The notes beneath the pieces are model-generated. The model was not told the DNA's origin. It saw nothing but the letters and a program-made list of their open reading frames with translations, and searched no databases. DNA of 63,823 nucleotides, counting the filler, from Hausera hauseri (taxonomy: Eukaryota), in NCBI GenBank assembly GCA_046269625.1. It is 13 parts of 13 records of this genome, joined end to end, with 100 filler letters (N's around TTAATTAATTAA, not from the genome) between each part and the next. Parts side by side here need not be neighbours in the genome. Positions count along the whole stretch, not along the records: positions 47,168 to 52,321 come from JBJURY010320383.1; 12 more parts are not named here. One strand, 5' to 3'. Shown here piece by piece: positions 4,904-62,860 of this stretch; position 1 is the stretch's first letter; every line of letters starts with the position of its first letter. A program made the translations under genes and the position numbers.

Positions 4904-4919
4904 TGAAAAAGTTGATTGA

Positions 4920-25828: not shown

Positions 25829-28800
25829 AACATGTATATATTTTTATTAACGCATGTTTATTTTATTTATGATATACAAAGTAATACATTTTGTTTGTCT
25901 GTAAAAATCGTTTCCCTCAATTACTCTTAAGTGTATTTCTACATTTGTCATTATTGTTTTTATTAACACATCGTGTTAATAAAAACTATATTGACCAATT
26001 TAGAAAATATGCTTTTAAGATTCAGCAAATGAAACAATTTTTACTGACAAATAAACTGTACTACTTTGTATATCATAAATGAAATCAGTAAATATCACAG
26101 ATAGTTTAAGTTTTCTTCATTAATTTCGTTTTTTCAAGTCATGATCTATTTATCCACTACACATTTTACAAATATAGACTGATCATGTGTGAAGGCAATT
26201 TTCTTACAAATTATTATAAGTAAAATGTACTGATAATTTGCAAAACTTTATTAGATTGGTATGATACTCAATATAAAATAAATAATTGATAATAAAAAAT
26301 GTACTTACATGAAATGGTACAAAATGAATTTAAAGAAAAAATGGTTCCACCTCCAGTCTCATTTTAAATATATCATCCTACGCAACACAAATATACGCAT
26401 TGTTTGTTTTCTGTTTACGTTTCACTTACATCTTATCATAATTTGTCTAAACTTAGACATTTATAATAAAAAATGTTATTTAACACGTTTAAGATATGTG
26501 GGCGTATTTTCAGATTTGGATATTAATGTGTATTTGTTAAATATTTGTGTTCGGTTTTCAAGAATACACACAAGTTTTTCTTCAAACAGAGACCATTTCA
26601 ATTAGTATATAAGCAACCTTTATTTCCCTATTTGCATTATCTATTTCCAACAAGAACAAATGGACCAATCACAGCCATTATTTTCTTTGCAAACAGATTA
26701 TGATTATGAAGAAACCATTGTTATATCTGATGAAGAAAACAATCAATCAAAGATCGTAGGATCTGAAGTGAATTCAAGCAATTAAAAAGTAATTGCTCAT
26801 GATCTTCCATTATCAACGAATTCCCAAATGACTATGCCAAGTTCAATACAATTAGATAGTACCGATCTTAATATTATAGAATCATCACGAAGTTCATTCA
26901 AAGCGGTTAAATCTTTCTTTGGATATATGATTCATTTTTTAACAAAACCAATATTGGTAAAATTTTCACAGGCAATAACATTGAAAACTTGCAAGTTTGG
27001 CTATCTTATTAAGGATATTTGCGAGGATGACATCAGTGCTTTAGGCAGTGCGCTGAATATAATGCCTGTTACTGTTACAGTTGATCCGGAGTCAATATCC
27101 ATAAAGAAACTAAATAAATGGTCAATTTATAATACCCGAGGCAATAGAATTCAGTCTCTTTCAGCGGAATCACGTGTTATGATAATCATAAAAATTCAGG
27201 TTATAAAATGAGCAGTGCCGAAAAAGCATCACCATTATTGGAAATCTCTGAAGTACACGATGTTGGAATGAATTTCTCAGATGCACAATTGTTTTACTCT
27301 TTGGTTTTATGTTATCAATACATATACTTGTTGATTAACGTTTTCTTTAGATTATACTGTGCCAGAAGAAAGTTAAAGATAAAATATATATTTTATATCG
27401 CCTATTTTTCTGTTTAGTACTATTTTAATTATTGAAATAATAAGTGCGACGTTTAATTTGTTAATTAACTAGCACCATATGTTTAAATTGAGACTATGGA
27501 TGTGGATGATCATTTATTTTCATGCTTTATTATTCTACAACTGGCAAACGTAAAATCAATTATAAATAGACAGGGATGTAATTTAACTAAATTATGACGA
27601 CAATAACCCTCGGTATTCATTTTTCCCGGTGTCCCTCAACGTAGGCGTACAATCAAAGGAATGCCACCGCCTACATCGAACTTTACTTTGTGTGCTGAAT
27701 GCCACTTCTGGTGACACTCTTTATGTTTAAGACTTTTCCTTTCTATTGTTGACATTGCTTTAGAGATGCTCAGCAAACAAAGGAAGAGTTTTGCACAAAA
27801 TAGAATGCTGACAGCGGCTGCATTCCTTTGTTGGTGCTCACCATACAAAGGATAAAATAACGGTAACATCAAGGGCGGTGACATTTCTTTGTGTTATCGA
27901 CTGTATCTTTCTATCTCAGCGAAAAGACAACCGCCAGCGGCAACTTCAAAGGTGGCGGCATTCCTTTGTGTTCTTAACTGCACCTTTCTATCTACTTCAG
28001 TCAATTGTCATATATCCTTGGTAACAAAGATTGACCCGTACAATGAAAGTATGGTTTAGAGTAAATGTTTTTTTGGTAATTGGCATTTAAGTTGACATTC
28101 CTGTTGGTTACTGTCAGTAAGAGAAATCTGAGAGTCATTGGACAATTTAACCATGAAAATATTTTCTCACAATAATATAAAAAGGTACTTTGGTACTGCA
28201 CATTCAACGCTTTAGTATAGCTAAGGAGTTCAACAAACTATTTTCTTTATAATGATTCCGGATTTTGGTCACACAGACAAAAAATTGTTTTAAGTGGCAA
28301 AGTCACTAATGTTGTATTATATTGCAAATATTGCAGGAACGTATATCATCAAATACAGGCAGAATTTGTGTACCGTAGTTAACAGTCATTGTTATAATAT
28401 AGTTTCATATGAATAATATTTTTGAAGTGTTTTCTCGAAATATCAAAGTATACAAATTCAGGGACGATTTTATAATTTTCCCAATTCTCATAATTGTTAT
28501 CAATGACATTTAAATTCCATCGAATAATTCACATATTGACATGACAATTACAACTGTTAAAGAGTCTAAGATCATTCACAATGCATAAACACGTCATAAT
28601 TATGTAATTGATCAGATAAAAATATAGGTGGAACATAAACTTTAAGGAGTTTGTTTAAAAAAATTATTCTGGATTTATGTGATGGTTATTGTATAAAATT
28701 TGTTTTGTAGACATCGATCTGTCGTAGTTGCGATAGACAAAATTGTAAAGAGTCAGTAGACTTGTGCAGCTGTTTCTAACACAATTTAATTTATTGGACA

Positions 28801-28830
28801 ATACATTTATTTTGTAAATTTTAGGAAATG

Positions 28831-29090
28831 AGTTTAATCAATAATGATGGGGGGGTTAATCGATAAATTGATATTGCACATGTGCCGATCGATAGTGCAT
28901 CCGGAGCACTATCGATCCATAAAGCGCCTGGCAACGGTGTCGTTAGGGACGGTTGCTAAGGACACTTTTGCACATTTCACAAATCGATCGCTGCACAGTG
29001 TAGTATTGATCGCATCGATCGGGATAAAGTGCTAATCGATAGAGCACATCGAGTTGCACCTTGATTGATTATGTGCAGGTGCATAGCACA
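28831..29090 (+). repeat. Another Polinton-type terminal repeat, opposite orientation to 24035-24473
   Basis: Reverse-complement similarity to about 24200-24430 including the GATCGATAGTG hairpin; truncated by the contig end. Confidence 0.75.
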
Positions 29091-33240: not shown

Positions 33241-33409
33241 AGTTTGACACATATAAGCATTGCAATCGGTTAACGTTTCATGAAATGGCGGCAGTTNNNN
33301 NNNNNNNNNNNNNNNNNNNNNNNNNNNNNNNNNNNNNNNNTTAATTAATTAANNNNNNNNNNNNNNNNNNNNNNNNNNNNNNNNNNNNNNNNNNNNAATT
33401 GATCGGATG

Positions 33410-36400
33410 ATCGTTTGAGATGCAACAGCCTTTGATTGTCCTTCTTCTTCATAGATACGGCGATAATCACTCATTTATTTCCGTCTGGGCCAACTGAACT
33501 CCTTTGGCGCGCATTTTCGGTCCACCGTCAGTTAGAAGCCTATAACATTTGGCCCATTCCTGATACTGAACCAGACCTTCACTTTCATCCTTGAAGCAGC
33601 CGATTTTGTTTGTGATGGCGTTGCTGTACAATGACTAATTCTGTGGATAATTTGACGTGTCCAGTAATCTGTCTGACATCATTTGCCGCAGTAATTGTTC
33701 GCAATTGACGTCTTCCAGTTCCAAGAAAAAATTATTTGTGTCACCGGCAATTATATTGATCCTGCATCCGCCGCCAAACATTTGCCGGTAACGTGCCAAA
33801 TCGAGGTACTGCGGCTCATATATCAGCAACTTGCTCAGATCAAATACCACTTGTCCTCTATAACTTCGCCGGTCCAGTACAACTTCTTTCCCGTTTAAAA
33901 GCATGGCAACCAATCCATCGGCAATGTGCATTGATCGCCTGAACTGCGCCATGCTCGTGTACGAGACCAACCGGTTTTCGCTATTAAATAGGCGTACATT
34001 GACCCGATTTTTCAGATTATCTACTGTTTTTCTGTAGAGCGAATTATTTTTTAGTGTTTAATAGTCTTTTCAAATTTTGTACAAGATGCATCTTGCTTTC
34101 CCTAATTCCAACTGATATATGGCTTGAATATCGGAGCCTGTGCGAATCGGACAGCGCGATGCAGCTCTGTGACGCATACACCCAACTGCATGTAAAATTG
34201 CAACAGACGCCAATGAACTATGTAATTTTGTTTAAGTTCATGCGTCATAAGAAGCTTCTTCACCTTCGAGCCCGGTAGACATTGACTGATTGGTGCGACC
34301 GGCAGTTTATCGAGAAAGTCATGCAGCTCATCTGGTACCACGAGATCGGCTTCCGTCAGGTACCCGATTGAGCTGGTTTCTGTTGTGTCTGCTCTCGGCA
34401 GATTTTCCAGAATTGTGTCCAGGTCCTGCTTGTCAACTACCCATTCGAAAGAACCGTATAACAAGGATTGAGAAAGCGCCCAGCTGTACAGGTTATTAAT
34501 GTCGATATATAACAGTGATGTGGTTTCATCACTGGTTACGTGACGCTTGTTGACAAATGTCATGCAGTTACGAATACCAACATCAAACATTCGGTACATT
34601 TCCGGGTCTTGCAATAGCTCGATATCCCGATCCAGTGACATCAGAGCTCATGCCAAACTTATTCCGGGTATTATGTAAAAGTTGAGTGGCTCCAGCCTAT
34701 CTTCTGCCAACGCTTTAGCTCAATATGCCTGAAACACTGCGGCTAACAGGTGAACATCCAATTTCAGATAGTATACACCTACAAGTTTCTGCAGCCAAGC
34801 TTTGCCCAAAACGACTCTACCCTGTGATATTCTTCTTCTGTGATACCGGGCCATTGAGGCGGTAATTCGTATGTCGTCTGGAGCCGCTCGGACGATATCG
34901 CAAAGTCATACGGGAATATACCTTTGCTGCACGCAATATGTACAGGGAACTGAGTCAATGTTAGCGGAACATCTGGCAAGGCATTTACCAGCTTTACCAA
35001 TGATTCGTTGAGAAATTGCGATGAATCAAGGAATCGTATCTGAAACCGGTTTATACGAGCAGACAGTGACAGGTATTTCTCCATCGTAGTCGTAATTACG
35101 GATAGTTCCCAGTAAGAAAATCCGTTTATTGCACATTTCAAAATATAGTGACAATTATAACCCTGAAGTTATGAAATACCACCGGTAGGAATGGCCGCAC
35201 ACGCCTTGTCAAATTGTATGAATTACATGCGGCTCCGAGATACCGACTGGTAAAATGATCGTGATCCGGTACGAGCCGTTCCTGTGCATCGAGCGGTAAT
35301 ATTTTTTGGCACAGGTAACATTCATGTGTGACTGCAAACGTCAGGCTTTCATCTTCGTCTGTCAAGATCAGAGGTTTGGTGCTATTATCGCAATATCACG
35401 GTGCAATTTCAGTTTCCAGTATTGTCTGCAACTGCTGCAAGAAATCGCGTACACAATTCAATACATGGAAAACATAATAATGAGGTTGACCTGCGGCTTT
35501 TTTGGGACAATCAACATATCGACGGCGATTGGAACATGTTTTTGGTCATATATGTTGTTCCGTGTTAAGACAGCTTCGACATCGGCTTATACTACATATG
35601 CCGGACTGTCTGTTTTTAACCAATCAGTGAATATTAGTTCCTTTTTGACGGGCATGACATACATTGTGGTTCCTGATGAATTTTCTCTGCACAGAATCAC
35701 ATGTTGCTCCCATGTTGTTTCTGATCTGAATCCATGCAGACGTAATGGACACCATTTACACGGTATCCGTTTTTCAAAAAAGTGATCACATTCCATGGTC
35801 AGCAGTCTGTCCAGATTTGTCACTGCAACGTAATGGAATTTTTCCTTTTGCTCTAATAGCAACAAATTTATTGGGCTACCATTTGGGTTCCGACAACGAT
35901 AGATTATACCAATATTCGGATTCTTATAGATTTCTTCATTTTCGGGTATTTCAACTATTGAGTTGTACAGGAAAACGTTGATTGACAGAGTCGAATTACG
36001 TCGTTCGAAGGCCGGCATCCATCTTTCATCGAAATCAAATTCGTAAAAATTCTGCCGATATTGATTTGAACGATCAGCATGTTTTCTAACCACTTTGTAA
36101 TGTTTCAGTACCGCCAGAATACTGTAAAGAAAACAGTATTCATCGTTGGTATTTTTTACATTTACTACCGCTAGAGACTGCTTCAATGTTGCAGGTGTTA
36201 GTATGAATGATCACCCGGACAAATATATTATATCACTCAGCTTTGTTATGATAAAGCCCATGGTGACAATTTTTATAATTCGCCATGCACTACCCTTTTC
36301 CGAATAGCTGAAGATTTTCTCCTCAGGCTTTTCGCCTACATCGGCAATAAAATCGTTGGAATACGGTTCGGCTCGATGTGGTAGGTAACATTGTTTCCTC

Positions 36401-37171
36401 TCACCTTCCAAATTTTCAAATACTGCTAGTGCATAATATTGCACTTTGCAGTTGTATTGGAATTTCTCCACTTCTGATTCCGGCCGTTGGTGCACATTAG
36501 GCGGAACATGTCACAGTTTCGTTGTTGTTGTTGTTTTCGCCGACATGTTCACTTTTATGTCCACGTACAATCTGTTCAGATCGCATGTGACTGTAATATT
36601 GGGAATATTGGCTTCCTGTTGCTCCTGTTTTTGTTGTTGCTGTTATTGCTGTTGTTGATGCTGTTGCTGCTGTTGCTGCACGGTACAGTTTTTGAATAAG
36701 TAGTCAAGACTTTTTGAAACCTGACGTTTCCTACTGGTTGTTGAGGGGATGATGATGCTGCTGTTCTTAGTTGAGTCTATAAATAGTTGTTTTTTTTGAC
36801 CGCTTAAACTGGTTTAAGTGGTCCTTGTGCAGATTATAAAATTGTTCATAGTTGATTTCAACAACTATTGAACAACTGGGACAAACGTAGGTCCGTTTAC
36901 TGTGAACCATTGTGGTGCCATAGAACTGCTCTATTGTACTATGGCATACAATAACGTTGTGCACTTTATTATTGCAGTAGTGTGGATATGTGCAGCAATG
37001 CTCAACCATCATCTTCTTAGACCGCGGTAATGGTCCAGGGTGATGCTTGTGAACTTCATAAAAGTCGTCGTACGGCCCTTGGGAACAAACATCACACGTT
37101 GGACACATACGTGTCCTTTCCTCCAACGCTGTAATATTTTGCCATCTGTTGATTACACTGGTTCTCCACAT
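33410..37171 (-). mobile_element. Polinton-type pPolB, degraded, copy A2 (paralog of 819-4480)
   Basis: VVNVKNTNDEYCFLYSILA, HECYLC..VPDHDHFT..LGAACNSYNL, LYIDINNLY, IAGDTNNFF; colinear with contig 1. Confidence 0.93.
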
Positions 37172-37288
37172 GTATGCGTAAAACTAAACATTAAACATAA
37201 CCAAAATGGTCTGTGAAATTGCCTTACTCTGTTATAAACGTTTGTTTCCCATACATCTACTACTATTATTACTACTACTACCAATCAA

Positions 37289-37535
37289 ATGGAACAGTAC
37301 ATTGAAAGTGAAATTTAGAAATTAACCGATGGCATAATGACCGGACATGTGTTTGATGTACAGTTTTTGTGTGAACCCACGGAAACGAAAATATCGAGAA
37401 GGAGCGAATACATTGAATTGATAGTAAGATCTCTCTTCGTAACACGTATCGAGGATGAAATGAGACGAAAATGACAACAATTATGTATTAGTTTCCTCAT
37501 TGGACTTGTATTTTCTGCTTCGCTATGTATTGTAA
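37289..37535 (+). pseudogene. Stop-disrupted homolog of ORF 4655-4903
   Basis: MEQYIESEI*KLTDGIMTGHVFDVQFLCEP...YIELIVRSLFV aligns with the 82-aa ORF. Confidence 0.8.
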
Positions 37536-37691
37536 TGAAAAAGTTGACTGACCGTACTTAATCACACACATATATTATATATATTATTTTGCTATGTTTG
37601 TTTTCGTGAATCAATATAATTTATTTTTCGTGTCTTTGTTGTTACATTTCAGTATAAATACGCGTGCTTCGGTACGGCATGACATTACGGC

Positions 37692-38138
37692 ATGTCCCAT
37701 TTATCAGAACTCATTCGTTTGTATCACTCCTTTGACGGTCTCCAGAGTCACCTTTACAATTTTGATTGACCTTTACATGATGTGCGATATTATTCGCCCA
37801 AGGAGATACTTCTGCGTCGACATATGAAGCAGGTTGTTGGTGACATGGACATGCTATTTGGCCAGATTTTTCGCACTTATCGGAAATTGGGTAATTACTA
37901 TGCGTTGGAATGCAATCCGCATCAAATACGGTTTGTGGAACATTTTGTCAAATGTGATCAGACTGGTGATTACATTATAACGTGGAAATCAGCGGATCGG
38001 ATTTTCTTCAAGCAACACTGCAATGTAATTATTTCCGATGGACTCGTTCATTTTCCTGCTGAATTGGTTAATGCACACGTTTTGTGTGATGATCCCAATT
38101 TTTTATTAAACTCAGATTTAGTTGTACCACATAAATAG
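37692..38138 (+). CDS. Polinton-associated hypothetical protein, about 148 aa, with one in-frame TGA
   Basis: The ATG at 37692 is in frame with listed ORF 37782-38138; TATAAATA at 37653 and AATAAA just after the stop. Confidence 0.5.
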
Positions 38139-38292
38139 AAAATAAAAGTTTGATAATGACTTGATCGCCCTTCTGTAATTTAGACAATATTANNNNNNNN
38201 NNNNNNNNNNNNNNNNNNNNNNNNNNNNNNNNNNNNTTAATTAATTAANNNNNNNNNNNNNNNNNNNNNNNNNNNNNNNNNNNNNNNNNNNN

Positions 38293-41100
38293 AAAAGATA
38301 ATGACGGACAAACTGAAAAGAAAACCAGATGAAAACAAAAGAAGAAATAAAAGTACGAAAATCGATTGGAATGAGAGGTTACAAAAATGTGAAATTTTAA
38401 GTCAAAAAGAGAAGGAGATGGTAATCAAATTATTGGAAAAGAATGACAGTCGATTTGCAGAAACTGACTATGACCTAGGCACAATGAAAATAATACAGCA
38501 TACCATCAAGTTGAAGGATGGACAAGACAAGCCTATTAAGAAAAGACCGTATAGACTAGCATACGATAAGAAACAGGAAGCGCGTAAAATAATAAAAGAG
38601 ATGACGGAAAATAAGATAATTCGACCAAGTTGCTCCCCATGGACAGCGCCAGTAGTGATGGTCAAAAAGACAGACGGAACTATGAAATTTTGTATACACC
38701 ATAGGGCCTTAAACGAAATAACAGAGACAAATGCATATCCTTTACCAAGAATTGACGAGATTATAGATAAACTACACAGATCGACCATATTCACGACCTT
38801 CGATCTACAAAAAGGCTATTGGTAAGTGGAGGTGAAAGAAGAAGATAAACCAAAGACAACCTCCTCAATTGGAGAAGGGTTATGGGAGTTCAACAGGATG
38901 CCATTTGGATTGAAGAATGGTCGGCCCACATTTCAAAGAGGAACAGAACTCCTGTTGTTAGATGCCCCACATGCCATGGTATATATCGATGGTGTAATAA
39001 TAAAATCACCAAATTTTCAACAACATTTAAAAGATCTACAGGATCTCTTTGATAGATGCGAAATAATGGGTTCAAAGATAAATCCCAAGAAATGTTTATT
39101 TGCCCAAGCAGAAGTAGATTTCCTCGGACATAAAGTAGATAGGCATGGTGCAAAACCTCAGGACAAGCTCTTGGGAAAAATAAGAGATTTTCCTAAACCA
39201 AGTACAGTTAGAGAATTACGTCAGTTTCTAGATTTAGCAAACTATTACCAATGATTTATAAAGGATTTTAGTAAAATTGCGAAACCGTTATATGAATTGT
39301 TACGTAAGGACCTAGAAAAAGTTATTTGGACAAATGAATGTCAAAAAGCTTTTGAATATTTAAAAGATAGACTATTAACGGCTCCTATATTAATTTATCC
39401 GGACATGACCAAACCATTTAGTTTGGCAACAGACGCAAGTGATTATGGAGTAGGAGAAGTATTATCACAGAAGGGCGAAGAAGGAAAAGAACACCCAGTA
39501 GCTTATGCTTCACGAAAACTTAATAAGCATCATAAGAAATATACTGTAATAGAAAAGGAGTTATTGGCATTAATCTTTGCCTTGAAAGTATTTGCACCCT
39601 ATATTAGTGAAAATAAACCTCTCTTAATCTATACGGATCATAGACCGCTCCAATGGCTAAAGCATCATGAAAATCCAAACAGCAGATTACTACGATGTGC
39701 TCTAAAGTTACAACCATATACATTAAATTTCCAATATGAGCCTGGATCGTGAAATGCTAACGCCGACTACTTAAAGAGAATACCCGATAAATCAAAAACA
39801 AAGGCAGTAGTCGCAGCCATATGGAATATGAATGGATCAGTCGAGAAAATTAAGGCAAATCAAAATGAGGATGTAGAAATAAGGACCATTAGAAAGTACG
39901 TAGAAGACAAAACCATATCAGCTGACAGAGAGCTAACCCGTCACCTGGCTCAATTCAGCGAAGTTTACGAGGAAAAAGAAGGATTTCTATATTTTATTAG
40001 TCAAAGCGGCCCTGCGCTAGTAATTCCTAAGAAAAATAGAGTAGTTTCAATGACTCAGTATAATGATAAATTACTTGGTGGACACCAATTAGCCAATAAG
40101 ACACTAAACAAATTAAAACGGAAATACTTTTGGCCAACGATAACGAAAGATGTACAAGAATGGTGCGAAAGCTGCAAGCTGTTTGCTATCCGAAAAAACA
40201 TAGAATCAAAGTTTAAAGCACCATTAAATGTATGGGACAACCCTCCAGCACCATTCCAATTTACCGCAATCGATATAACGGGGCCATTACCGTTAACACG
40301 GAACGGAAACAAATATATCTTAGCCTTTATTAACTATTTCACCAGATGAGTTGTTGCCCTACCAATGCCTGATATGAAGGCAGACACAATAGCTGAAAGA
40401 TTTGTGGAAAATATAGTATTTAATTACGGAGCTTCAAGAATCCTCTTGACAGATCAAGCGTCAAATTTAACTGGAACTGTAATGCAGTCCATATACAACA
40501 TCCTGAAGATATTGAAATTACGATCTACACCGGGACATCCGGAGAATAACGGAATGGTTAAGAGATATATTGGCAATTTAAAAGGGAAATTACCAACGGT
40601 GGTAAATATTAGACAAGACGACTGGGACGAATACATCAATGCATGTGTTTTTGTAAATCGGACATCGGTTCATGAAGCTACTAAACAGACACCCTTTTAT
40701 CTAATGTATCTACGGGGCGCGAGATTACCGATCGATCTAGATATTAATGTAAAACCAATTTCACATTTAACGGAAATAGAAGATTATAAGAAGTTAATGC
40801 AGGAACGCCTTCAATTAGCATATAAAATGATTGGCGATAACCAGAAGGACTATAAATTAAAGTATAAAAAGTACTACGATCAAAAGACCAAACAGCCTAA
40901 AATCAAAATAGGTGACCAAGTAGTGCTGTATTCACCAGCAATTAAAAAGGGTAAAACATCTAAGTTAGATAGACCATATAAAGGACCGTATGAGGTAGAA
41001 AAGGTACACTTACCAAATATTTGTTTGAAGAAAAATAATACTTCAGTGAAAGTCCATGTTAATAGATGTAAGCCCGCTGCCAAGGAGAATGAACTAAGAA
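38293..41100 (+). mobile_element. Ty3/Gypsy pol (RT, RNase H, integrase) with stops
   Basis: SPWTAPVVMVKK, YPLPRID, DLQKGYW, RMPFGLKN, VYIDGV, ATDASDYG, EKELLAL, YTDHRPL, HHCC-type finger, AIDITGPLP, LTDQ and the GPY module. Confidence 0.96.
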
Positions 41101-41169
41101 AAGGTGAGAAAGAGTTGGTATGTAGCATTAGTGATAAAGTAATCGAAAGAGATTCAACAAATAAACTCC

Positions 41170-42519
41170 AGATAAAGGATGTCCTATTACTAATCATCAG
41201 CGTGTTATCGCCCATAGTGATAGGACAGATGACGAATTCAGAAATCGAACAAGCAAAAATAAGACATGCCGTCGCTATACAAGAAGATATACTAACGAAA
41301 GCTCTAAAGTATAAAATAACATATTCAGAGAAAGGACAAAAAATAATAATTTAGAGTATGCTAGACCAAATGACATCAACATATATGATGAGAATACAAA
41401 TGGTACCTTGGCACGATAACAAAAGAGACCTAACGAAAGACAGTCTAGTTGCCTATTGCACGCAAAAACCAATCACACAAAATGTTAGGTACAAGACTCA
41501 GGAGTTCACTATATATATCTTACGCTCATAAGGAAGCAAGGCGATTATTATAGAAGCCAGAAAACGCAATTTTTTAGATTCATAGTGATCCCTACTAGAC
41601 AACAAATGAATGAAACGTTATTAGACAAAATAATACTTAACCAAATGATAGCAAGGCGCATGGGATTCAAAAGCGGAAGAAGCTGCATAGAGGTCATAAC
41701 AATGATACGATTAGAAGATACTCGAAGAATGACAATAAAGCTGATAGACACAGCAATCCCAAAAGTCAGAGTCTGCAGAATTAAAGGCAATCAACAGCGA
41801 GTGTGTTGTATCGTTACGAGAGGCAAAATATACCACGTCCATTATCTTCTATTCCGAAAAAGGAATGGTAAATTCAGGTATCCAGTAGAACGAAAGGACC
41901 CACAATGTTCATACGATACAAAAATCAAAAAAAGTACGATGATATACAAAACAAAATCACGATGCCATCTGTGCAATCCTCGACTGATAAAAAAGAGATG
42001 ACTATCTTAATTAAACCCTACGCTTCATATTATCGTCAAAAGCGTTCCATATGGGATAACGTAACTATCATAGCAGCCCCCACTGCACTAAATATCTCCG
42101 TTAAACCAGATATCAATTTCGTAAAAATAAAATTTAGTTATAAAAAACAAGACATCATTGTAGCAAAAGGAATCATAACCCCTGATGATCTGATAGTTCC
42201 GCGTGCGGCTTTAGAGCCTGATATTAAATATACGGTCATTCTACAATTGTTAGATGACAATGACAAAATAACATCTACGAAAGTAATGTCTGCGATCACA
42301 AAAGGTAACAAAATAGAATCACCATACGGGATAAATACAGTTAAAAGTAAAAATACTAAACAACCATCACGAGCGGTATACATATATTCTCGCCTAGAAA
42401 TAATCATAATAGATTCAACAGTCCCAGTAGCAGTTATAATAATAGTAGTGATATTATTTAAGGTGATACAACGGCGACGCAAGAAGAAACGAATCTGGGT
42501 GCGAATTAACTTGCGCTAG
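41170..42519 (+). pseudogene. env-position membrane protein ORF of the Gypsy element (signal peptide, furin site, FN3-like domain, TM), frameshifted
   Basis: Hydrophobic VLLLIISVLSPIVIG in frame after integrase; RQKR; ALEPDIKYTVILQL; TM VPVAVIIIVVILF followed by RRRKKKR. Confidence 0.68.
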
Positions 42520-42879
42520 CTAACGAACCCGTTAGCAAGTGACAACCCCAGCTGACGGTTAAGTCTAGAAATTGCTATTTATGTCACCCTTTTAATAGCG
42601 ATAACCACATGTCNNNNNNNNNNNNNNNNNNNNNNNNNNNNNNNNNNNNNNNNNNNNTTAATTAATTAANNNNNNNNNNNNNNNNNNNNNNNNNNNNNNN
42701 NNNNNNNNNNNNNATTATTTTGAGGGGAAAGTGTTGCTTCTATATGGCTCTATATCAGCTACGTAATCACAATTTCCTTCAAGAACTTTAGACCAGACGA
42801 GTACAGAGGTAAACTGTTTCTTAATTTAAGTAATATAATTAAATAGTTTCAAATCCTAGTGAAAGCATTGGAAATTAGT

Positions 42880-46060: not shown

Positions 46061-46659
46061 CATTGGGAGCATTGCTCTTACATATACAAATTGTTGGAAT
46101 CAAGCGCAACTTCCAAATGTGTAAAATAACCTGTGACTCTTTATCATGTGACTCTTGTTTTCGTTCGTGATGTAATTGAATTGAGTGTAGCGTTTTCTTT
46201 GTGTGTTGTGCCTGAGAAAGACCTTTTTGGTAGTAACGTATTTGTTTTTCTTGTTCACCATACTCGTAAGACTCTATTACTCCATTTTTATTATTTTTTT
46301 TTTCACGACCGTAAAATAACTAGTGATGTCATAAATAGGAAGACATGTATACATGTATTCTTGCAAGGCAGCGGATGAGTGATGCTTGTATTGCTTGTTT
46401 TCATTTATATTTGTTACAATATATTTGCAAATATTATATTTGGGTTCACTGATTATCTCTACTCTTACAAACTATATTTTGGATGACTTTAAAAAAATAT
46501 TAACCATCTTCCATGGTAAATCCAACCAGCTAACAATTTGGTTCTCATGTACATTAATGAACTATACTAGCATGTTTAAACATGTTTACTTCTATTGGGG
46601 TGGAGGCTCTTGGAATCACTGTAAGATACCATTGCATAAGTTAAAAGAAGAACAATTAA

Positions 46660-47067
46660 ACGAATGGCAAATATTTTTCCGTGTAGAGATAAATCTTCTA
46701 GATATGGATAAATATGGTATCCAGCAAGTAATTAGTTTGCTGAGACAAATGGTTGAAGATCGTAGATTTTACCGAACATTTGATATACAATGGATAAACT
46801 TCAAACGAATACAATTTGTTAGTGCATGTAATCCTCCAAGTCCTGGTCGAAAACTATTAAGTCACAGAATTTTAAGAAATGTTCCAGTGGTGCGTGTTGA
46901 TTATCCTGGAAAAATGTCATTGAAACAGATATACGGTATATTAAACCATGCGATGTTAAGAATGTTGCCATTTCATTGAGGTTATATCGACACATTGGCA
47001 AATGCAATGGTAGAGTTTTTCTTGAAGACTCTAGATTGTTTCACTCAAACTGTGCAACTTCATTATA
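46660..47067 (+). pseudogene. DYNC1H1: Cytoplasmic dynein 1 heavy chain AAA3-region fragment, mutated
   Basis: [24 protein letters not shown]...[42 protein letters not shown], then after a frameshift LANAMVEFF...FTQTVQLHY. Confidence 0.9.
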
Positions 47068-47167: not shown

Positions 47168-49024
47168 CCATAAAAATTCTACCTACTGCTTTTAGTAGAG
47201 CAGCTAGTATTTTTCGGGTACATCCAGTTATGGCGTATATTGAGTATGCATCCACACACGTCATACATCCATTTTTAAGAATTACAAATCCACAATAGAA
47301 GACTAATATAGTGGAAGCTATATTACCTAATCACTGAAACTGTCCAAATATTATACCAAAAATCTTTTTCATAGTTTTTTCTTGGATATCAGGATCTAGC
47401 ACAGTTTGCCAACCTTTACTATAATCTCTGGATGCTGTTCCACCCATTAAGACTGCATGTTCTACTCGATTAAACTCCTGTTCTCTCATTATTGGGAACA
47501 TAATTTGTTTTATGAAAGTATTTAATTTATTTGGTCCATATAATCCTACATTTGCTGTATCCTGAAATAAGTTTATATCGACTGCATACTTTTAGGATTT
47601 CATCCTTATGTTTAGTGGTGTTTAGACAATCGTACTGTCTGGTAATTGAACCCATTGTCCTTGATTATTATATTTTATTCTAGGCTTTATTAGTCCTAAA
47701 CAGTTATGAATAATAGTGGGTTTTGTTTCTTTTGGTAGAAGGATTCGTTTTATTGGTGTTACCAGTTTTATTTTATTATTTAATTTGACTGGAATTTCTG
47801 ATGTACAGATAGTTATATCTGATCTGTCTGTGACTAAACTTACCTCAAGTTTTGGACTCATGAAGGTCAATAAGGTTTCTCCGATTGCTCTTCCAAACAT
47901 TCCTTCGGCTAAGGGTAATTCTGGAACTAGAATATCCGGATTGGATGTGATTAAAGACAATTAAGTTCTTAAAATCTCTTGGTTTAATCTATAATCATTT
48001 TCTATGACTTCCGGATACATTTCGTGTATTCGTTTTCTAATGTAAAATTTCTAATGTAAAATTGTAGATGCAAATGTTGAGTTTTATCGAAAAATTCATT
48101 ATCTGCTCCTCTGACCCTTGTCGAAGATATAAAGAAATTATCATAATTTGTTTTCCATAAGGTCGTATCATATTTTATTGTAGCTTCTTGTCTTATAAAT
48201 TTCATCCCTTCTGTTATATTACTTGACCAATATATAGTCGGGGTATTTACTTCTGGGATTACTTTAACAGTTGAATGTGGAAGGTTTCTGTTCATTTCAT
48301 CGCTATAACGATAGCCTGTTGTCACATTAAACATTCCTTCTTTTAGGAGTGCTAAGAGACAGCTTGCTTTTTTATCATTCGTCCACATTAGTAATCCAGT
48401 CATTACTCGGCATGATTCTGCTGTATATTTGCAAAATGGTGCATCTATTATTGTACCTGTAGTTGTGTCAAAAACAAATTTAGCTGTTTTCAATTCAGCG
48501 ATATATCTTTGTGTGTGTACGTTTCCTTTTCCTCCACCATTAGCAGCACAATTTCCTGCAGCATCAATTGTTTCTTCTTTATAACGCAATACCGTTCGTA
48601 CTTCTCCTGGTTGAATATCTATAGTAAATCCATCCCAATTAATTCTTCCATATTGTATGGCTTCTAAACATTGCTGCGGTGTAATTTTCAATTGCATAAA
48701 TGGTGTGAAAGGTTTAATTTCGGATATATGACTATGCATTCCACAATATTGTAATTTTTCAGACAATTGTAAAGAGCATTCATGGCCGGATACATGTAAC
48801 TTTTGTTTTTGTTGATAAACGTATATATGTTCCCTTTGGGTAGTTAGACGATGAGGTGATGCGTCTGGACATTTGTCTAGATCCATTAAAGAATAATACT
48901 TTCCATGCTTAATATTATTATTACAATCATATATGGTAATACCTGCTCCTTTTGGTAGGATAGTTGTTAGTAGTAATAATACGGCTAATATTGCATTTAA
49001 AATATTCTTATTGTTGCATGGCAT
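47168..49024 (-). pseudogene. Chuvirus-type (Jingchuvirales-like) envelope glycoprotein, near complete, disrupted
   Basis: Signal peptide then ITIYDC, YSLMDLDKC, YCGMHSH, AGNC, GMFGRAIGE, CTSEIPV, VTPIKRIL, VGLYGPNKL...IMFP and a C-terminal TM region ending AYSIYAITG; this is the motif order of chuviral G proteins. Confidence 0.85.
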
Positions 49025-52000
49025 TGGTTTTCCTTCTCCTTCTTCTTGTATTTGTTGTTTTCTTATTCAATCCGTCAGTTAAATTACAACTTCAGGTAAG
49101 GTTTCTAAAGTCATTTTTGGTACTGTTTGTTGAATTTGTGCCGCTATATTTTTATCAAATATTGACAACAATCCTCCGAATTTATAAACTTCAAGATCTA
49201 TTAAATCAATTATAATTGGAATAATTTCCTTAATTTCTGATTTACTTTCCATTGTGGTAACAAGGTAAACTAAAGTTTTTTCGACACGTCTCTTTGAGGG
49301 TGTTTGCAATAACTTTTTATTTATTTGTTCGCGAAAATGTTTAAGGACTTGGTCCTTTTGGTATTGCAATGCTAATTCCTTTACGGCTTTTATCCAATTT
49401 GGTGTTTCATTATTGATAGTGATTACACCAGTAATGATATCATACAACTACTTTACCATGTCACGAATTATCTTGTAATTCTTATTGGTTTTTATGACTT
49501 CAGTTGTAGTCATTTTTTGAACAAAAGAATTTATTATAAAATCTTCATTCGTCTGTTTGGTTTTAAGCTTTTTCTGTTGAGCTTGTAATAGCTGCTGAGG
49601 TATATCCTGATGTATTTCCTTATCATATTCAGCTATGGATGTTATCTGTTGAGTCTGGATATTACGGTTAAGTTTATTTATATATAACTTTTTGTCATTT
49701 ATTCCAAGGATTTCTTCATCTATTTTGATTTCTTGTCCATCAGAGACTCTTCTTATGATATCTTCTTTGAGTAATTGTTTAGTTTCTATTACATGAATCT
49801 CATTATTTTCTCCTGGCATAATACCTACTTCTGTTAGGTAAGAAGCATTATCTAATATTCGATTTGCGAAAATAATCCACATATAATTTATGTTTATTTT
49901 AGTCTTTTCTGCTATAACCTGTTTTGTAACCAGGACATTATCATGAGTTGTCATTATTATTTTCAATTCTTTTGTCCTTAAAGTTATCACCTTTAATGGA
50001 AGCACTAGCGGAGGGTTTTGTCTAAATGTACTTCCATATTGTTTCAACAACATTCTTGGCAATGCATTATATCTATTATTATCTGCTGCCAATATGATTA
50101 ATTCAGGTATTTTATCTTTTAATTCTTGTAATTCGAATTTTGGTTCAGAGATTTGAGAGGCGTTCATCCAAAACTTCAGGCCAAACCTGAGTTAAGGAGA
50201 TATTGGATTTCAGTGTCTCGGTTGAGTACTGAGGTTGATATATCGAATCTTGATTTGATTGTGTTATCACTTCTTCATACTGTTGTAGGGTTTGTTCTAC
50301 ATCTTCTTCAGTTAGATTTAGTTCATCTAGAGTTTTTGGCTCCTCTGAGTCGTCTAATTCTTCTACTGGTATGTTATCAATATCTTGATTTTGATTACTT
50401 GTTGCATCTTTATACCATTCAGCTACTTTTTGGATTTTCTTTTTACCTAATTCTGTAAAGAATGGTTTAAGCGTTGATAGCATTTTGAGATGTTTCTTGG
50501 CTATAGGTTTATCAGCTAGTTTAATTTTTCTATCCTTAAGTTTTAACTTTAACTCTTCAATTTTATTCAAGATCTTAGGAGTATCATCCACTTTGTCAAT
50601 GAAACTTTCTATGGCATTTATTTTAGCCCGATCTATTTCTGAAAATGTGCTTTTGAATTTGTTTAGTTTTAACATTTGTTTATTTAATTTTTCCTGTGAC
50701 AGATTAGGCAGATTAAGTTGACTCAATCTTTCAATTCTAAGTTTTAATTCATTAACCTTTTGTATGGTTGGTTTAGTATATTTATCAATTTCTTGTCGGA
50801 TTTCAAGGATGCATTTTTCATTATCCTTTTGAAAAGGGTATTCTGACGCCAAAGCTATTTCATTTTTCTATGAACCCACTTCAATTTTTCTTGTCTGGAA
50901 AGCTTCATTTGATTTATTCGATCCATATCAAAGTATATTTCGTCTATGAATTGTAATTTTTTTTGGGAGTCAGCTATTTTGTGTTGTAAGTCTCGGATAC
51001 TACTCTGAACATTTTGTCTTTCACGATAATTTAATTTTTTAAGGAATAATTGATTTTCCAATCCTTGGTTAATTTCTTCAAGTTGAGTTAGGGTGGAAAT
51101 CTTTTCCATATCAATATCTGTAGCTTTCTTTAGCAATTGTGACAATATATCTTGTGCTTGAGGCGAATTCTCAGTTAAATCTATTGCTTTTACTGATGGA
51201 GTCTAGCCTGAATTTTGTGAACTTGAGGTATCTCCTTTTCTACCTAAAACTTCATCTATTACTTCGTCAATTTCGTTACATTCCTTATTATAACGATTTC
51301 CGTGTATTTTTTTAATGTCTGTAAAAGATCATCAAATACTTTAGATTGTTTCAATTTCTTTGGTCCATTCATATACTTTGACAAAATTACTAATTGCATT
51401 TCCGGCAAATCTTTTGCGTACTCTGGTATTTCCCCACTTAATATATTTTTGACATCTTGTATTATTTTCTTAGTAACATATTTTTCTTCGTTATTATCTT
51501 CGACTATCATTTCTATTGGTTTAGCATATGTTTTTTGCTTTGATTTCTTAGTTACCTTTGGAACTACTTGAGTAAGAAATTCCTCAGTTTCATGTACCTC
51601 TTGTATCGGTATCCATCGAGGAATGTTTAATGGAAGTTTAATTTCTTCTTCAATTTCTAACTTATTTGAAACTTTATCAACTCCATCTGCAATTGTCAGA
51701 GGTTTCTCGGAGCTATCACTTGAATAATTATCTAAATCCGGATTACCTTCTTTTTGCTCTTGTTCACTTTCTTTCTCATCTTTTTCTAATGCGGCTAATG
51801 AATTTTCATTTATTTCCTCATCAGAGGCTGGTTGTACAGGTGCATTTTGTTGCATTTGTGAGGTTTTGACTTCGGATCCCACAGGCATAGCCTTTAATAA
51901 ATAGTCTTCGGCTGGTGTCAAAGTTTCACCTTTAAATAGTTTATCGTAAGCCCTTTTTCTTCTTGTAAGGATTATACTGTTGGTGACGAATTCATCTGTA

Positions 52001-52321
52001 TAATCTTTTTCCTCAATCATTGACGTCATGGGATTTTTATACTTTCCTGCTTGGTATCGTTTAAGCATGTCATCAATGTCAGTACTTTCTTTAGCTGCTT
52101 GAGCAAGAAACTGTTCTTTTATTTGCGGCGGCAATCGATCTAATTTAATTTTTACATCATCTAATGTTTCATGTAATGATGATAAATTCAACACTTTTTC
52201 TTGTTTTACTGTTGGTAACTGTTCAACAGGGGTCATACAATTGACCGAAGTATGACCATCTTGACCGCATCTTTTACATATTACTGGGGTTCCATTTTTA
52301 TTTAAATCTAATATACCCCTT
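49025..52321 (-). pseudogene. Large disrupted polyprotein region: CCHC knuckle, acidic and coiled-coil segments, ubiquitin-like domain
   Basis: Abutting minus-strand ORFs with uniform composition; CKRCGQDGHTSVNC at 52237-52278; Ubl at about 49784-50002; same frame as the glycoprotein from 50167 onward. Confidence 0.72.
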
Positions 52322-52959: not shown

Positions 52960-55900
52960 TCTACTGAATCTATACCATCTGCTTCTCCTAACCTTTCTTG
53001 TAGAGAGTTTTGCCTTTATAAAACTAAGTCAAGTCGCACCGGGCTATAATTTCATTTACAATGGCTTAGAGCCAATAACATTACTGATTTTTTCTTGTGT
53101 GCTAACAGCTTGTTACTTCTTCTACTATCAAATATCAAGCAGAAAATCAACAATCTTGCTAATATTCTTACTTCTTCATCACTGTATGACATGCTTTACC
53201 AGTCTGTGCTCCATATTACAAATCCATCGATCAATAGTATAATACAAAAATACTTTAATTAGCTTGCTAGAGGCAATAGAAAGCCTTCTGACTTTCTGCA
53301 GACCTCTATTTCACAACAAAGTGCTCTTGGAGTCACTCCCACCAACAATTCAGACCTGCTTCGTCATTATTTCCTCTCCTCTTTACCCACTCCAATTAGG
53401 GCACTACTTACTCTCGTCGACGACTCAGTGGCCATTGAAAAACTTGCCTTATTGGCTGATAAGAGTTTTGAAATTCTTCAATCGAATAATACATCTCCTA
53501 TAGCTGTAGCAACCACTTATACGCCACCACACACATATACCATTTTATTTTCGCAACAACTGCAAATGATTCAGAAACAATTCGACACACTGCAACAATC
53601 CATTTGTGCGATTGCGGCCCATTTTAGTAATTTAGCTGTGCCTCGACGAGGTGACATCCATGTTTCGCGCGATCGTAACCTTTCCAGGCATTCATTTCGA
53701 TCCAAATCTCGAGATGGACGAATGATTTACATTTATCATAATAAATTCCATAGCGACGCAAAGAAGTGTCTTCTAGGCTATAGAGTTTACGACAAACGTT
53801 ATGCAGTAGACAACCCTATCTGCATTTACCACACAAAATATCAATCTCAGGCTAGATTGTGTATTCCAGGATGCAAACATTATAAAAAAATTTTCACTTT
53901 TTCTCCATCTTCTCCTCGCTCTTCTTTTCATTCCTCTTCTTTTCACAACAATTCTCAAAAAACTAACAACGCCGCCAGATGCCACGGAACATTCTGGTAT
54001 AGGCAATATCGCTCAATCTTCTGGCCGTCTTAACACCGTCTCTGCAGTTTTTGTGTTAAAAGCTGCATTGTTCTCTAGCAATGTTTCACATTTCGACTTC
54101 CTTAGCGATTCAGGAGCTGCCTTTTCGCTCCTTCCCTTGTCCTTCACTCCTACATCCACTATAATTTCCTCTCACCGCTTTTCACTGCGAGTGGTCAACA
54201 GTTGCACATTGCAGGTACCATGAAACTTATTTTCACATTCGCCAACTTGCCATATAAGCATGTTTGGAAATTCCACGTGGCCAATCCCCAATAATCGGCT
54301 CAGATTTTCTGGTCGCACATGATCTGCTAGTTGACTGCAAGTATGGCTGTCTGCTACACAGAGACTCCGTCGTGGATGCTAACAAATATCTACCAAAGAG
54401 CCCAGTAGGAACACAGCCGTTTTCAACTGTTAACTCACATGTGAATTTCACAACTTTTTAGTTGGCTGATAACGATACATTTAGTAATTTATCCATTTCT
54501 CAATTACATCTAACGTATCTAAGTCGGTTTTAGAACAACAGAGTAAAAGAAATGCTGATGGTGGCCGTTGAAGTCGTTCTTCGCCAATACCATCCACTGT
54601 CGCTTCTGATGATATGCCTCCATCATTCTTATCGCTGGAATCCAATCTTAAAACCTACATCACAACTCCTTGCTTCCGCACTCTCAAAAAAGACGTTAAC
54701 TTCAAGCCGCCTTCTACAACTTATTACCACATAGTCACCGAACGCCAAAGACCTATGAGACTAAAGGTCAAAGCACTGTCACCTCGTAGACAAAAAGCCG
54801 TTGAAATAGAGTTCAGTGAACTCGAAAAGTTAGGTATTATTCGAAGATCAAAATTACCATGGGCTTCACCATTACATGTAGTAACAAAGATAGATGGCAC
54901 TTAAAGACCATGTGGTGACTGCCGGCAGTTAAACAACCTAACAGTTCTAGGTCATACCCTTACCTCTTATAAAGGACATCCTGCACAGTCTAACCAATAC
55001 TAATGCGTATTCCACAATTCATTTGCATAAAGCGTATCATCAAATTTCGGTTCACCTGATGACATTCCAAAAACTGCTGTTATTACTCCATTTGGCCTCT
55101 ATTAGTATATATTTATGCCATTTGGCTACGTAGAGCTTCCAAAACCTTTCAACGACACAATGATACCGTTCTATCAGGCCTTGACTTTGCTCATCCTTAC
55201 ATTGATGTCATATTAGTTGCCTCCACCTCTATTAAACCTCATCAAGAACATCTCCGTATTATCTTTCACAGACTACATCACAGTAATTTACAAGTCAATT
55301 TCTTCAAGTGTCATTTCTTTCAAAAACGTGTTAATTTCCTAGGCCACATCATCACTCCTAAAGACCATTCTCCACAGCCGGATCGACTATAACAATTGAA
55401 AAACATAATGCTACCAGCGACTACTACGGATATCAGGAGTTTCTTAGGCACACTCCACTTCATCCACAAATACGCACCGAATTGTTCTGAGATTACAGGA
55501 CCGTTCGCACATCTATCATCCGGGAAAAGAGGCAGATAACCCACTGGACTCCGGATTTAGTCACCAAATTCGATTACTTACGTGAAGGCCTATAAACCTT
55601 CGAAATACTGGACTATCCAAAGCCCAAATCAGATCTTATACTTACTACCGATGCCTCTACCACAGCTACCGGTGCATTACTACACCACATTTCTAACGGC
55701 GTCGATGTATCATTAGAATTTTACTCCCGAATACTCGCATACCGCAAAAGCCGTTATTCATCATTTGACCGTGAGTTACTCGCCATAGTTCTGGCAGTAA
55801 AGCATTTCAAACTCTTACTTCTCTCTCGTCTATTCGTTATTCACACTGACCACAAGCATCTCCTGCATATCATGTCGTTAAAACAGCCATCACCGAGGCA

Positions 55901-57798
55901 AGAACGACATATATCATACCTGTTTACATTCAGTTTTGTTTTAGAATAGATTTCAGACACAGATAATTTGGTAGAAGATTTTCTGTCGAGGTCGGTTGGC
56001 GCCATTACAGTTGAGCTGATTTTCTCATACGAAGTCTTAAAGGCCAATCAACCGTCTGCTGACTTCCTTAGCTCTTTCAAATCCTTCGAAATCATTGATA
56101 GCATTGCTTTTGATAAGTCGTATTTCGGTAACAAAAAGATCATTCTACCGCCACCTTTACAACAGCCAGCCTTCCTTCATGCACATTCACCCCATCATCT
56201 GGGTTTCAAAGCAGCCTTTTGTCTGCTTCAACGTCATGTAGTTTGGCCATCAATGCGCAAAGATGTACAGGACTGGGTTAAGGAATGCGTAGCGTGTCAA
56301 AAATACAAAATCAACAAACACCTTAAACCGCCGGTTTATTATTTCTCTTGTACATCACATTTTCACACAGTTCATCTTGATCTCGTTGGTCCTTTACCTT
56401 CTGACAACGAATATCAATATATCCTTACTATGATGGATAGTGCTTCGCGCTGGCCTGAAGCCGTTTCTCTTCGTTCAACGAACACTGACTCAGTAGCCTA
56501 CGTCGTCATAAAAATTTGAATCAAAGTCTACAATTTGAGTCGGAACTCTTTAAATCACTTCTTAAACGCTTGGAGATATCTTATGTTCATACAACACCAT
56601 ATCATCCTCAAGCGAATGACCTCCTTGAAAGGTTCCATCGAACAATGAAAATGTCTTTAAAAATCTTGGTTGACAATCATCGTAATTGGACGTAAATTCT
56701 ACTATTTGTCCTACTGGGGTGGCGCAACACACCCTCCACCACCACGGGTTGTGCTGCAGCCGAGGCACTCTTTGCAACTCCAATACGGGCTTTATTTGAA
56801 TTTTTAGACCATGACGACAATTCCACAAACGAAAACATTCGTGCAGCACAATCTCACTTCGTCGAGGTCAAATCAGACTCGTTCTGCCGACTCTTTAACA
56901 TTAACAAATCGTACATTCCAAAGAATTTGTACTCCTCCAAGTTTGTTTGACTAAAAGATCAATCGCCTTCGGGTTTTAGACCTCAATATGTTAATCCATA
57001 CAAACTCTTTAATCTCTCATCTCACACAGATACCATCTTACGCCAAGACAATCCTTGCAACGTCCACATTTCGAATCTGAAGCCCGCTTCCTTTATTAAT
57101 GACAACCCGGATGCCAATTCTACCTCCGATTCAAACTCAACTCTTACTCCTTCCATTGCGTCCTCTAATTTTCTTCATGACTTTGCGCCGTTGCAGCAAT
57201 CACCGTTCTGTCACACTCAATCACCATCATTTCTTCCGTCCATTTCGTCTCCCTCTCTGTCATCATCTCAACTACTTTCTTCACCTCCATTACCTACATC
57301 TATTATTTCATTGCCTTCTGCTTCATCACCTTCAATTGCATCGATTTTTTTATTTTACTTATTTCCGTTACGACCTTCATCCTCTTCATCACATTCAACA
57401 CCGGACATTGAACCAGGCAATCTCACAAAACGTCTAGCACAAAATGTCGCTCAACAGCCAAGCACAAATCAATCAATTAAGGCATGCAGAGTGCCATTCA
57501 GCTTTTACAGCAACGAAAAATTCTTTGATGATACACTACGCCTGATACATACTAAAACCGAATAGGCACTAAACACTGTTCCTTTGTTGCGATTTATTGC
57601 TTTTATCTTTATTGTTTTTATCATTTTTCTTCTGCCACGAGGGTATTGTGGTGTCGCGGTCGCTGACACAGCTCGTGTCCTCACCAATTGGCCAGAAACC
57701 AAGACGATACCATTATTGCAGTCCTCGAAATGGTTTTCAGGCTTTTTAAAGCACTCTCTCTAATATATTACATTCCTCTCAGATATCCTCTCATTACA
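52960..57798 (+). mobile_element. Ty3/Gypsy element of CsRn1-like type, degraded gag-pol with candidate 3' LTR
   Basis: Gag CHCC motif CIYHTKYQSQARLCIPGC, protease FLSDSGA..S, PWASPLHVV, YIDVILV, LTTDAS, FDRELLA, HTDHK, integrase VHLDLVGPLP / RWPEAV. Candidate LTR TGTGGTG...CATTACA at 57647-57798. Confidence 0.92.
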
Positions 57799-62324: not shown

Positions 62325-62860
62325 ATGTTTCATACTGTAACATCTATAAAGAGTAGAATGCTATTGTTTTCAGTTCTACCGTGAACTTAATGTTTTCATG
62401 CAATCCATTTAATAATGTCAGATATTTACCTATATGATCCTTTTCTTTAAATACAAGAAATATGTCATCTACATATCTTTTATACACTTTGGGGGCATAG
62501 TCAATATCTCGTGGTATTTTGGCTTCAAATGATTGTAGGAACAACGATGCCAAAGTAGGTGCTAATGGAGAACCCATTGCCACTCCGTCAACTTGCTCAT
62601 ACCATTCGTTATTAAATAAGAATCTTACATTTTGTATGCAAAATTCCAAGAGGACCTTTAATGCACGTTTAGTTAATCCATTATTTCCGTTCCAAGCTTC
62701 AATACATATTTCAATGGTTTAATTCACCGGCATATTCGTGAAAAGTGATAAAATATTAAAAGAAGTCATCACTTCACCGCTCTCAATAATTCTATCCGAT
62801 ATGTATTGCACAAGTCTAAAAATGTTTACATCCTAAACTGTTTGCTTTCAATCATTCCAA
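62325..62860 (-). mobile_element. Penelope-like reverse transcriptase core fragment
   Basis: SLFTNMPV, YEQVDGVAMGSPLAPTLA, YKRYVDDIF, IKFTVE. Confidence 0.93.

Follow-up and report, generated by a model that had tools for sequence, protein, structure and literature searches.

When a nucleocapsid-like zinc knuckle and a chuvirus-like envelope glycoprotein (Env) lie on the same broken reading frame, does the locus record a virus gene that landed by accident beside a Gag remnant, or one element that made both products? The question is raised by one part of a window (by which we mean the whole stretch of DNA analysed, 63,823 nucleotides from Hausera hauseri, assembly GCA_046269625.1) that consists of 13 short contigs joined by spacers; the feature studied, at positions 47168-52321, is one entire contig of 5,154 bp (JBJURY010320383.1) with a GC content of 32%. 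We think that it is very probably a broken middle-left fragment of a multicopy Burro-like Ty3/gypsy retrotransposon, the intact form of which would encode one polyprotein in the order Gag, accessory region, Env, protease, reverse transcriptase (RT), RNase H and integrase. It is neither a chuvirus insertion nor a BEL/Pao element, and its layout is already published: the contig adds a divergent family, not a concept. A reading made from the sequence alone (the sequence-only reading hereafter) had proposed a part of a large enveloped retroelement, possibly Burro-like, that makes a nucleocapsid-like protein and a fusogen from one precursor. The single precursor is now backed by copies that read through the breaks and by intact single-frame relatives, and the Burro-like retroelement by the domain order of those relatives and by the description of Burro in PMC6431247.

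Stop-free pieces lie end to end on the minus strand (52320-51259, 51202-50855, 50867-50145, 50191-49448, 49447-49079, 49066-48002, 47960-47622 and 47591-47334, plus a final piece to the contig end), and this frame map bears out the earlier statement that minus-strand open reading frame (ORF) pieces tile the contig. They are separated by 12 breaks: the frame shifts at four sites (near 51300, 50860, 50150 and 48020-48040) and meets a stop codon at eight (51203-51205, 49448-49450, 49079-49081, 49067-49069, 47961-47963, 47622-47624, 47592-47594 and 47331-47333). From 50191 to 48002 the frame stays the same and is interrupted by three point stops; the junction text that had been quoted for this stretch is present, as the sequence-only reading said when it described ORFs sharing one frame with only point stops at the junction. 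This copy is dead and unable to make the protein. From 5' to 3' the order of domains is a CCHC knuckle, a charged spacer, a helical and ubiquitin-like module, a possible Bcl-2-like domain, a signal-like segment, an Env of family PF24664 and a membrane anchor. The last codons of the contig still match the Env tail of relatives, and the contig carries no RT, as had been noticed before, because it ends just past the Env anchor, inside that tail. No long terminal repeat (LTR) or meaningful repeat was found inside it.

The state of the ancestral frame can be read from other copies, which were taken from one public run containing 0.40 of the sampled contig words, its contigs being aligned at 80% identity. 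No RNA data set was listed as containing these words, which has no bearing on expression. All 30 bins of our contig were covered by 1621 run contigs at 80-100% identity, and because these spread over identity classes (130 at 99% or more, 215 at 95-99%, 511 at 90-95% and 765 below 90%; 1276 are below 95%), the element is a family of many diverged copies, multicopy in its host, although run depth is not copy number. The comparison of stop codons took in 40 of 1142 differences, plus a narrower look at the junction before Env. At six or more of the eight stops, most or all of the depth in other copies has a letter that gives a sense codon; for 49448-49450, 47961-47963, 47622-47624 and 47331-47333 this is so in 6-12 contigs each, with essentially all of the depth, and for the two stops before Env in 7 contigs (53/69 of the depth) and 6 contigs (37/55). 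Other copies have no indel at this junction, which three long contigs bridge without a gap. Two run contigs are identical to our copy and one of them spans both junction stops, which are therefore real in this copy. Among the length differences listed (12 of 20), copies differ in length at three frameshift sites out of four; the signal is strong near 51300 (5 contigs, 97/101 of the depth) and partial near 50860 and 50150. The relative P0030 runs in a single frame across the 50150 site. The sequence-only reading had considered that other copies might conserve the stops, making the glycoprotein a separate gene, and this is not so, most copies having sense codons at the junction. Since sense codons are found in other copies at six of the eight stops, both pre-Env stops included, the ancestral frame was most likely continuous from the Gag side through Env.

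Relatives were collected by a full HMMER search with the 729-residue frame, its stops read as X. It returned 141 proteins, 140 of them matching in or into Env and one near the ubiquitin-like module. Among the best 10 of the 141, Env lies behind at least 117 upstream residues in eight, and an aspartyl protease follows in six of those. Domain scans of 17 of the 141 show the closest relatives to be single-frame polyproteins of 2,000-4,800 residues, with Gag, a ubiquitin-like domain, sometimes a Bcl-2-like domain, Env, and a Ty3/gypsy protease, RT, RNase H and integrase. Env and all four of these enzyme domains share one frame in P0004, P0010, P0017, P0023 and P0144 (P0010, filed under a bacterial genome bin, is probably a contaminant). 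In the scanned close relatives that bear pol, RVT_1, RT_RNaseH, Integrase_H2C2 and rve follow Env in Ty3/gypsy order, and the domain scans contain no BEL/Pao-type Pfam family. The relatives have a hydrophobic segment at the start and at the end of Env, and many have a further pair after the integrase.

A second search used as query the pol fragment of another contig of the window (38293-42613). Its top rows by E-value are less similar pseudoscorpion gene models; among the best 120 of 375 matches, 12 reach an identity of 42% or more across 97% or more of the query, nine of them with PF24664. One protein, P0173 (4,057 residues), has knuckles, PF00240/PF11976, a Bcl-2-like domain, Env, ankyrin repeats, protease, RT, RNase H and integrase. 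In 14 fetched proteins with at least 300 residues before Env we counted a knuckle in 11, the ubiquitin-like module in 10, a Bcl-2-like domain in 3 and an RT motif in 11, counts that are partly circular in that 3 of the 10 modules and all 3 Bcl-2-like cases were already in our profiles; the independent counts, in 12 new proteins, are 7 for the module and 1 for the Bcl-2-like domain (P0173, E 2.4e-12). This set of intact relatives, documenting a conserved ubiquitin-like module and an intermittent Bcl-2-like domain, is a by-product of some use. A Burro-like element has Env in frame from Gag to Pol and a linked Ty3/gypsy protease-RT-RNase H-integrase: the Gag side of the frame is seen in other copies and the Pol side in relatives only, while the linked enzymes are seen in relatives and on an unlinked contig of the window, our contig ending earlier. 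The word-index protein search gave no match of similar length and one longer match, and the long-locus searches confirmed none of 7 candidates from viral contigs and none of 178 from metagenome contigs. As observations apart, P0144, P0007, P0004 and P0170 carry several aspartic-protease-like repeats per polyprotein (up to seven Pfam stretches in the 4,844-residue P0144) as well as ankyrin repeats and C2H2 fingers, and P0195 has an immunoglobulin domain after its integrase.

In Env itself, three consecutive pieces match PF24664 and follow the order of the profile: 4-226 (E 1.3e-18), 351-445 and 472-543, the last two below the cut-off. An Env profile built from nine relatives matches at positions 6-344 (independent E-value 2.8e-60) in one frame and continues at 343-620 (1.4e-52) in the next, across the Env frameshift. 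The anchor has a hydropathy of 1.9 at about 47330. A PDB sequence search with the N-terminal half of Env gave a single match at chance level (E 1.4), and the top atlas match for Env, at 0.94, came with recognition below the threshold of the tool; that Envs of this family have a class III (gB-like) fold is taken from predicted structures in PMC13524379. The Env tree has 31 rows (30 of 151 profile matches were long enough) labelled by simple motifs, with no named chuvirus among them. It places the Env of our contig in a group of 22 of the 31 rows, with 100/100 support, that holds all 18 polyprotein Envs, apart from the 9 others. The glycoprotein had been called chuvirus-type, which stands in so far as PF24664 is a family built on chuvirus-type G; its nearest relatives, however, are Envs of Ty3/gypsy polyproteins and not free viral G or BEL/Pao Envs.

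Features of the contig, in the order of the coding (minus) strand, with positions along the window
Feature	Position	Strand	Basis and remarks
Entire contig, internal piece of a decayed Gag-Env-Pol single-frame retroelement (very probable reading)	47168..52321	-	Contig boundaries on both sides; no LTR found
CCHC zinc knuckle, nucleocapsid-like end of Gag	52237..52278	-	Sequence motif; capsid region expected outside the contig, ahead of its start
Charged helix-prone spacer, about 700 codons	50160..52236	-	Frameshifts near 51300, 50860, 50150; stop 51203-51205
Conserved helical bundle and ubiquitin-like domain (ubiquitin-like part about 49993-49790)	49790..50152	-	Pfam; profile of relatives; model of a relative
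Helical region where relatives have a Bcl-2-like domain	49157..49519	-	Alignment with relatives; stop 49448-49450
Two point stops before Env	49067..49081	-	Sense codons in most other copies, no indel
Internal signal-peptide-like segment	48941..49003	-	Hydropathy; same position in relatives; cleavage predicted immediately ahead of 48940
Env ectodomain, PF24664 family (chuvirus-like, HSV/gB-type)	47334..48940	-	Frameshift near 48020-48040; stops 47961-47963, 47622-47624, 47592-47594
Env membrane anchor (about 47330-47277, past stop 47331-47333) and start of cytoplasmic tail	47169..47333	-	Hydropathy; relatives continue into protease

On the Gag side, the CCHC knuckle of the sequence-only reading is present, its motif starting at 52278, and one knuckle is visible on the contig; in the relatives P0003 and P0183, Gag-like sequence precedes the knuckles (by eye). 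The spacer between the knuckle and the ubiquitin-like domain has about double the length that it has in any of eight relatives (104-379 residues). It had been described as an acidic region and a long coiled coil, and a crude heptad test backs the coiled coil for the piece 51202-50855 (15 of 500 shuffles scored as high) and not for the other two pieces (373/500 and 105/500).

The ubiquitin-like domain proposed earlier is well supported. Pfam finds ubiquitin at E 2.5e-6, above its cut-off, and a profile made from four relatives only scores 31.2 bits on the module of the window, against a best of 10.9 in 1000 shuffles. The module of a relative is modelled (predicted local distance difference test, pLDDT, 90.6) as a four-helix bundle followed by a ubiquitin fold; Foldseek relates it to SUMO, ISG15 and ubiquitin with a probability of 1.0, and structure comparison to the ubiquitin fold gives Z 11.8 with a root mean square deviation (rmsd) of 2.0 over 76 residues. 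The module is thus, as modelled in the relative, a conserved and well-folded unit of the lineage. For the bundle, the sole row covering it among the top 50 structure matches is importin-13 repeats (Z 10.3, rmsd 2.2, 75 residues), and matches to repeats of this type are common for helical bundles. The bundle might conceivably be a domain of the TFIIS N-terminal type; Pfam does not list one there. P0183 apparently has two helical and ubiquitin-like modules (residues about 545-661 and 783-911), the first of which scores weakly.

Between this module and Env, relatives may carry a Bcl-2-like domain, which Pfam detects at E 9.6e-4, 0.055 and 0.2, values that are weak yet recurrent, directly before the signal peptide; these matches to outside libraries are under formal significance except in P0005 (E 9.6e-4, under the Pfam cut-off). 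All 54 of the 54 PDB sequence matches of P0121 contain Bcl-xL (best E 0.056), and in the alignment its signal segment is in register with the tail anchor of Bcl-xL; an atlas search with residues 620-760 of P0003 gave no usable match. Such a domain thus appears to come and go within the lineage right before the Env signal peptide. In our contig, the corresponding region aligns with the Bcl-2-like domain of relatives at two motif-like spots and at the same position before the signal segment, so that a Bcl-2-like domain in this copy is, on the alignment, likely but unproven. The internal signal peptide of the sequence-only reading is confirmed as a signal-like segment with a hydropathy of 2.01 at 48994, at the same place in relatives.

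We are tempted by the idea that a single hydrophobic segment might serve as the Env signal peptide and, once cleaved, might anchor a working Bcl-2-like protein by its C-terminal tail, in a flavivirus-like processing, but we regard this as tentative and on balance doubtful. Targeted literature searches did not find it, and published figures or the authors' sequence repository may already show the topology; direct searches for Bcl-2 with retrotransposon polyproteins found no paper, while related searches led to PMC6431247. If the idea is true, a retrotransposon would deploy its own membrane-anchored death regulator and a conserved module of helical bundle and ubiquitin-like domain from the same precursor as its capsid, fusogen and polymerase. 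Apoptosis regulators of their own are otherwise known from large DNA viruses. Were the domain to work and to be anchored by the signal peptide, there would be one in a reverse-transcribing element, and the open suggestion that Burro meddles with host apoptosis (PMC6431247) would become directly testable.

For the intact element we would propose the following course. Gag and the accessory region would be synthesised by the ribosome in the cytosol. The internal signal peptide would thread Env into the endoplasmic reticulum, where host signal peptidase would free the N-terminus of Env, and the Env anchor would bring the chain back to the cytosol, where the aspartic protease or proteases of the element would release RT and integrase. 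Until cleaved, Gag would be held at the membrane by what is left of the signal segment; assembly of the capsid would in this way be coupled to membranes that bear Env, and the resulting particles would be enveloped and carry a class III fusogen. The host cell would probably be modulated by the ubiquitin-like and Bcl-2-like domains. This topology (cytosolic Gag and accessory region, luminal Env, cytosolic protease, RT and integrase) is inferred from established rules of polyprotein topology together with the hydrophobic segments of relatives.

A number of observations weigh against our interpretation. No pol, LTR or capsid is physically linked on the contig; Env has at most 31% identity to any fetched relative, and its branch in the tree is flagged as long, with no fixed place within the group of 22 rows; the spacer upstream of 50315 is mostly without a match in fetched relatives. 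The stops 51203-51205 and 47592-47594 and the Env frameshift lie outside the differences listed, and the public run is possibly the window's own source. As for the Bcl-2-like domain in this copy, the first profile is not significant and the second is borderline, its scores being reached in 55 of 2000 and 105 of 2000 shuffles. The model of the region is of low confidence (pLDDT 45); Foldseek found nothing with it at E 0.001 or below, and with VIA the best Z was 7.2, fusions of Bcl-xL and Bcl-2 ranking 11 and 46 among unrelated helical proteins.

Could the Env be the G of a chuvirus or another member of the Jingchuvirales, integrated as an endogenous viral element by or in an unrelated Gag remnant and joined in frame by chance? 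Such insertions are common in arthropods (PMC10084718), the PF24664 match would be expected, and the 131 weaker matches of our search include many stand-alone proteins of 630-750 residues. We nevertheless consider this very improbable and already largely refuted: the junction is open in other copies, the upstream ubiquitin-like module is common to Env-bearing polyproteins, the best Env matches and the tree group are polyproteins (in a tree without a named chuvirus), and the pieces of the contig contain no match to N or L. Just as improbable is a BEL/Pao element with a captured chuvirus glycoprotein, like Anakin of mosquitoes; although Anakin elements do have chuvirus-like glycoproteins (PMC7642597) and one weak match, P0083, has a knuckle before Env, the pol domains are in Ty3/gypsy order in all scanned pol-bearing close relatives, with no BEL/Pao Pfam family.

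A non-autonomous derivative of the same lineage, which kept Gag-Env, lost pol and was copied in trans, seems to us quite improbable. It would suit a contig without pol and a spacer of about double the length found in any of the eight relatives, but the missing pol is uninformative in a contig that ends while still matching the Env tail, and within the window another contig (38293-42613) holds a piece of pol from this lineage. Finally, we give almost no credence to a domesticated host gene or to an assembly chimera of several copies. An assembly of short contigs can indeed mix copies of a repeat family, but the two identical run contigs, one of them crossing both junction stops, speak against a chimera, the 12 breaks argue against a function in the host, and the order of domains is collinear with that of intact relatives. 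The retrotransposon fragment described above remains our preferred reading.

The other contigs of the window have no nucleotide match to this one and a single weak translated match (E 0.007). On the plus strand of 38293-42613 lies a decayed Ty3/gypsy RT-RNase H-integrase (38379-41072, four stops), whose closest full-length matches, among the best 120 of 375, are polyproteins with Env in the middle. Past the integrase there is a signal-like stretch near 41175, and the frames end near 42430-42515 in a hydrophobic segment that has a basic tail, which recalls the second membrane protein of relatives; compared with the tails of 15 relatives, this part gave one trivial match. The A content of the sense strand is 0.40 there versus 0.42 in the Env contig. 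This contig may represent the pol half of the family to which the Env contig belongs, or of a sister family. Elsewhere, contigs 1-4919 and 33397-38192 are about 76% alike over most of their length, and the former carries a decayed DNA polymerase B of the protein-primed type, Maverick/Polinton-like by inference. Contig 14496-18884 is a scaffold of low complexity, interrupted by gaps and extremely rich in purines (AT skew about 0.8). Contig 24035-29090 has pieces in common with contig 9671-14395; an inverted repeat of about 210 bp lies close to its two ends, and there is a palindromic stretch inside. Further repeats and pieces of genes at 5360-6397, 22615-23328, 46383-46979, 54632-56749 and 62344-62718 comprise RTs, a helicase like PIF1, a fragment of a dynein motor and another pol of the Ty3/gypsy type, which is more distant.

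How does the element compare with known ones? Burro proper is an element of planarian hosts of more than 30 kb, with LTRs and an ORF of about 5,000 residues. As described in PMC6431247, ORF1 of Burro (GYPSM1, the giant Ty3/gypsy element of planarians) combines Gag with CCHC knuckles, Smc, MATH, a ubiquitin/SUMO-like motif, BCL2 and an Env in frame between gag and pol, so that the architecture which the sequence-only reading did not recognise had already been reported. Our contig is likened to it by this described order of domains, sharing the CCHC Gag, the ubiquitin-like domain and the Env in frame downstream (PMC6431247). It differs in that Burro has MATH/TRAF between the knuckle and the ubiquitin-like domain, where Pfam finds none in the contig, although the Dugesia tigrina element, in the description given there, also has no MATH in ORF1 (PMC6431247). 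The same source mentions decaying Burro fragments in a third planarian and matches of the Burro Env to mononegavirus fusion proteins (PMC6431247), and BURRO1 is transcribed once silencing by PIWI-interacting RNAs (piRNAs) fails (PMC8532177). The knuckles of Burro are plural; the contig shows one, and more may lie beyond its end. The comparison takes in the stretch from the knuckle to the Env tail, and the size, LTRs, BIR, ankyrin and dUTPase would fall outside what the contig covers.

The nematode endogenous retroviruses (NERV) of Sacco et al. (2022) reportedly have a continuous gag-env-pro-pol frame, and we know of no ubiquitin-like or Bcl-2-like accessory domains in them. They are cited in PMC13524379 as metaviruses with Env before pol, a trait shared with the lineage studied here, and the same paper describes GAG-ENV-POL errantiviruses with gB-type Env in Platyhelminthes, Bryozoa and Nematoda and lists nine flatworm elements. 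Smed_errantivirus_1-6 resemble our element in having Env before pol and an Env related to the chuvirus-like glycoprotein of BEL/Pao elements (PMC13524379); the planarian Env rows of that paper look similar to our Env, and between the Env of Smed_errantivirus_3 and our contig at about 48244-48125 there are, by eye, 17 identities in 40 positions with a similar cysteine spacing (PMC13524379). The contig copy differs from them in being broken, and the words ubiquitin, CCHC, polyprotein and Burro are absent from the main text of that account, which thus does not discuss accessory domains there (PMC13524379). The Anakin elements, for their part, have a glycoprotein of the same broad family (PMC7642597) but belong to another superfamily of retroelements, whereas the relatives found here have a Ty3/gypsy-type pol after Env.

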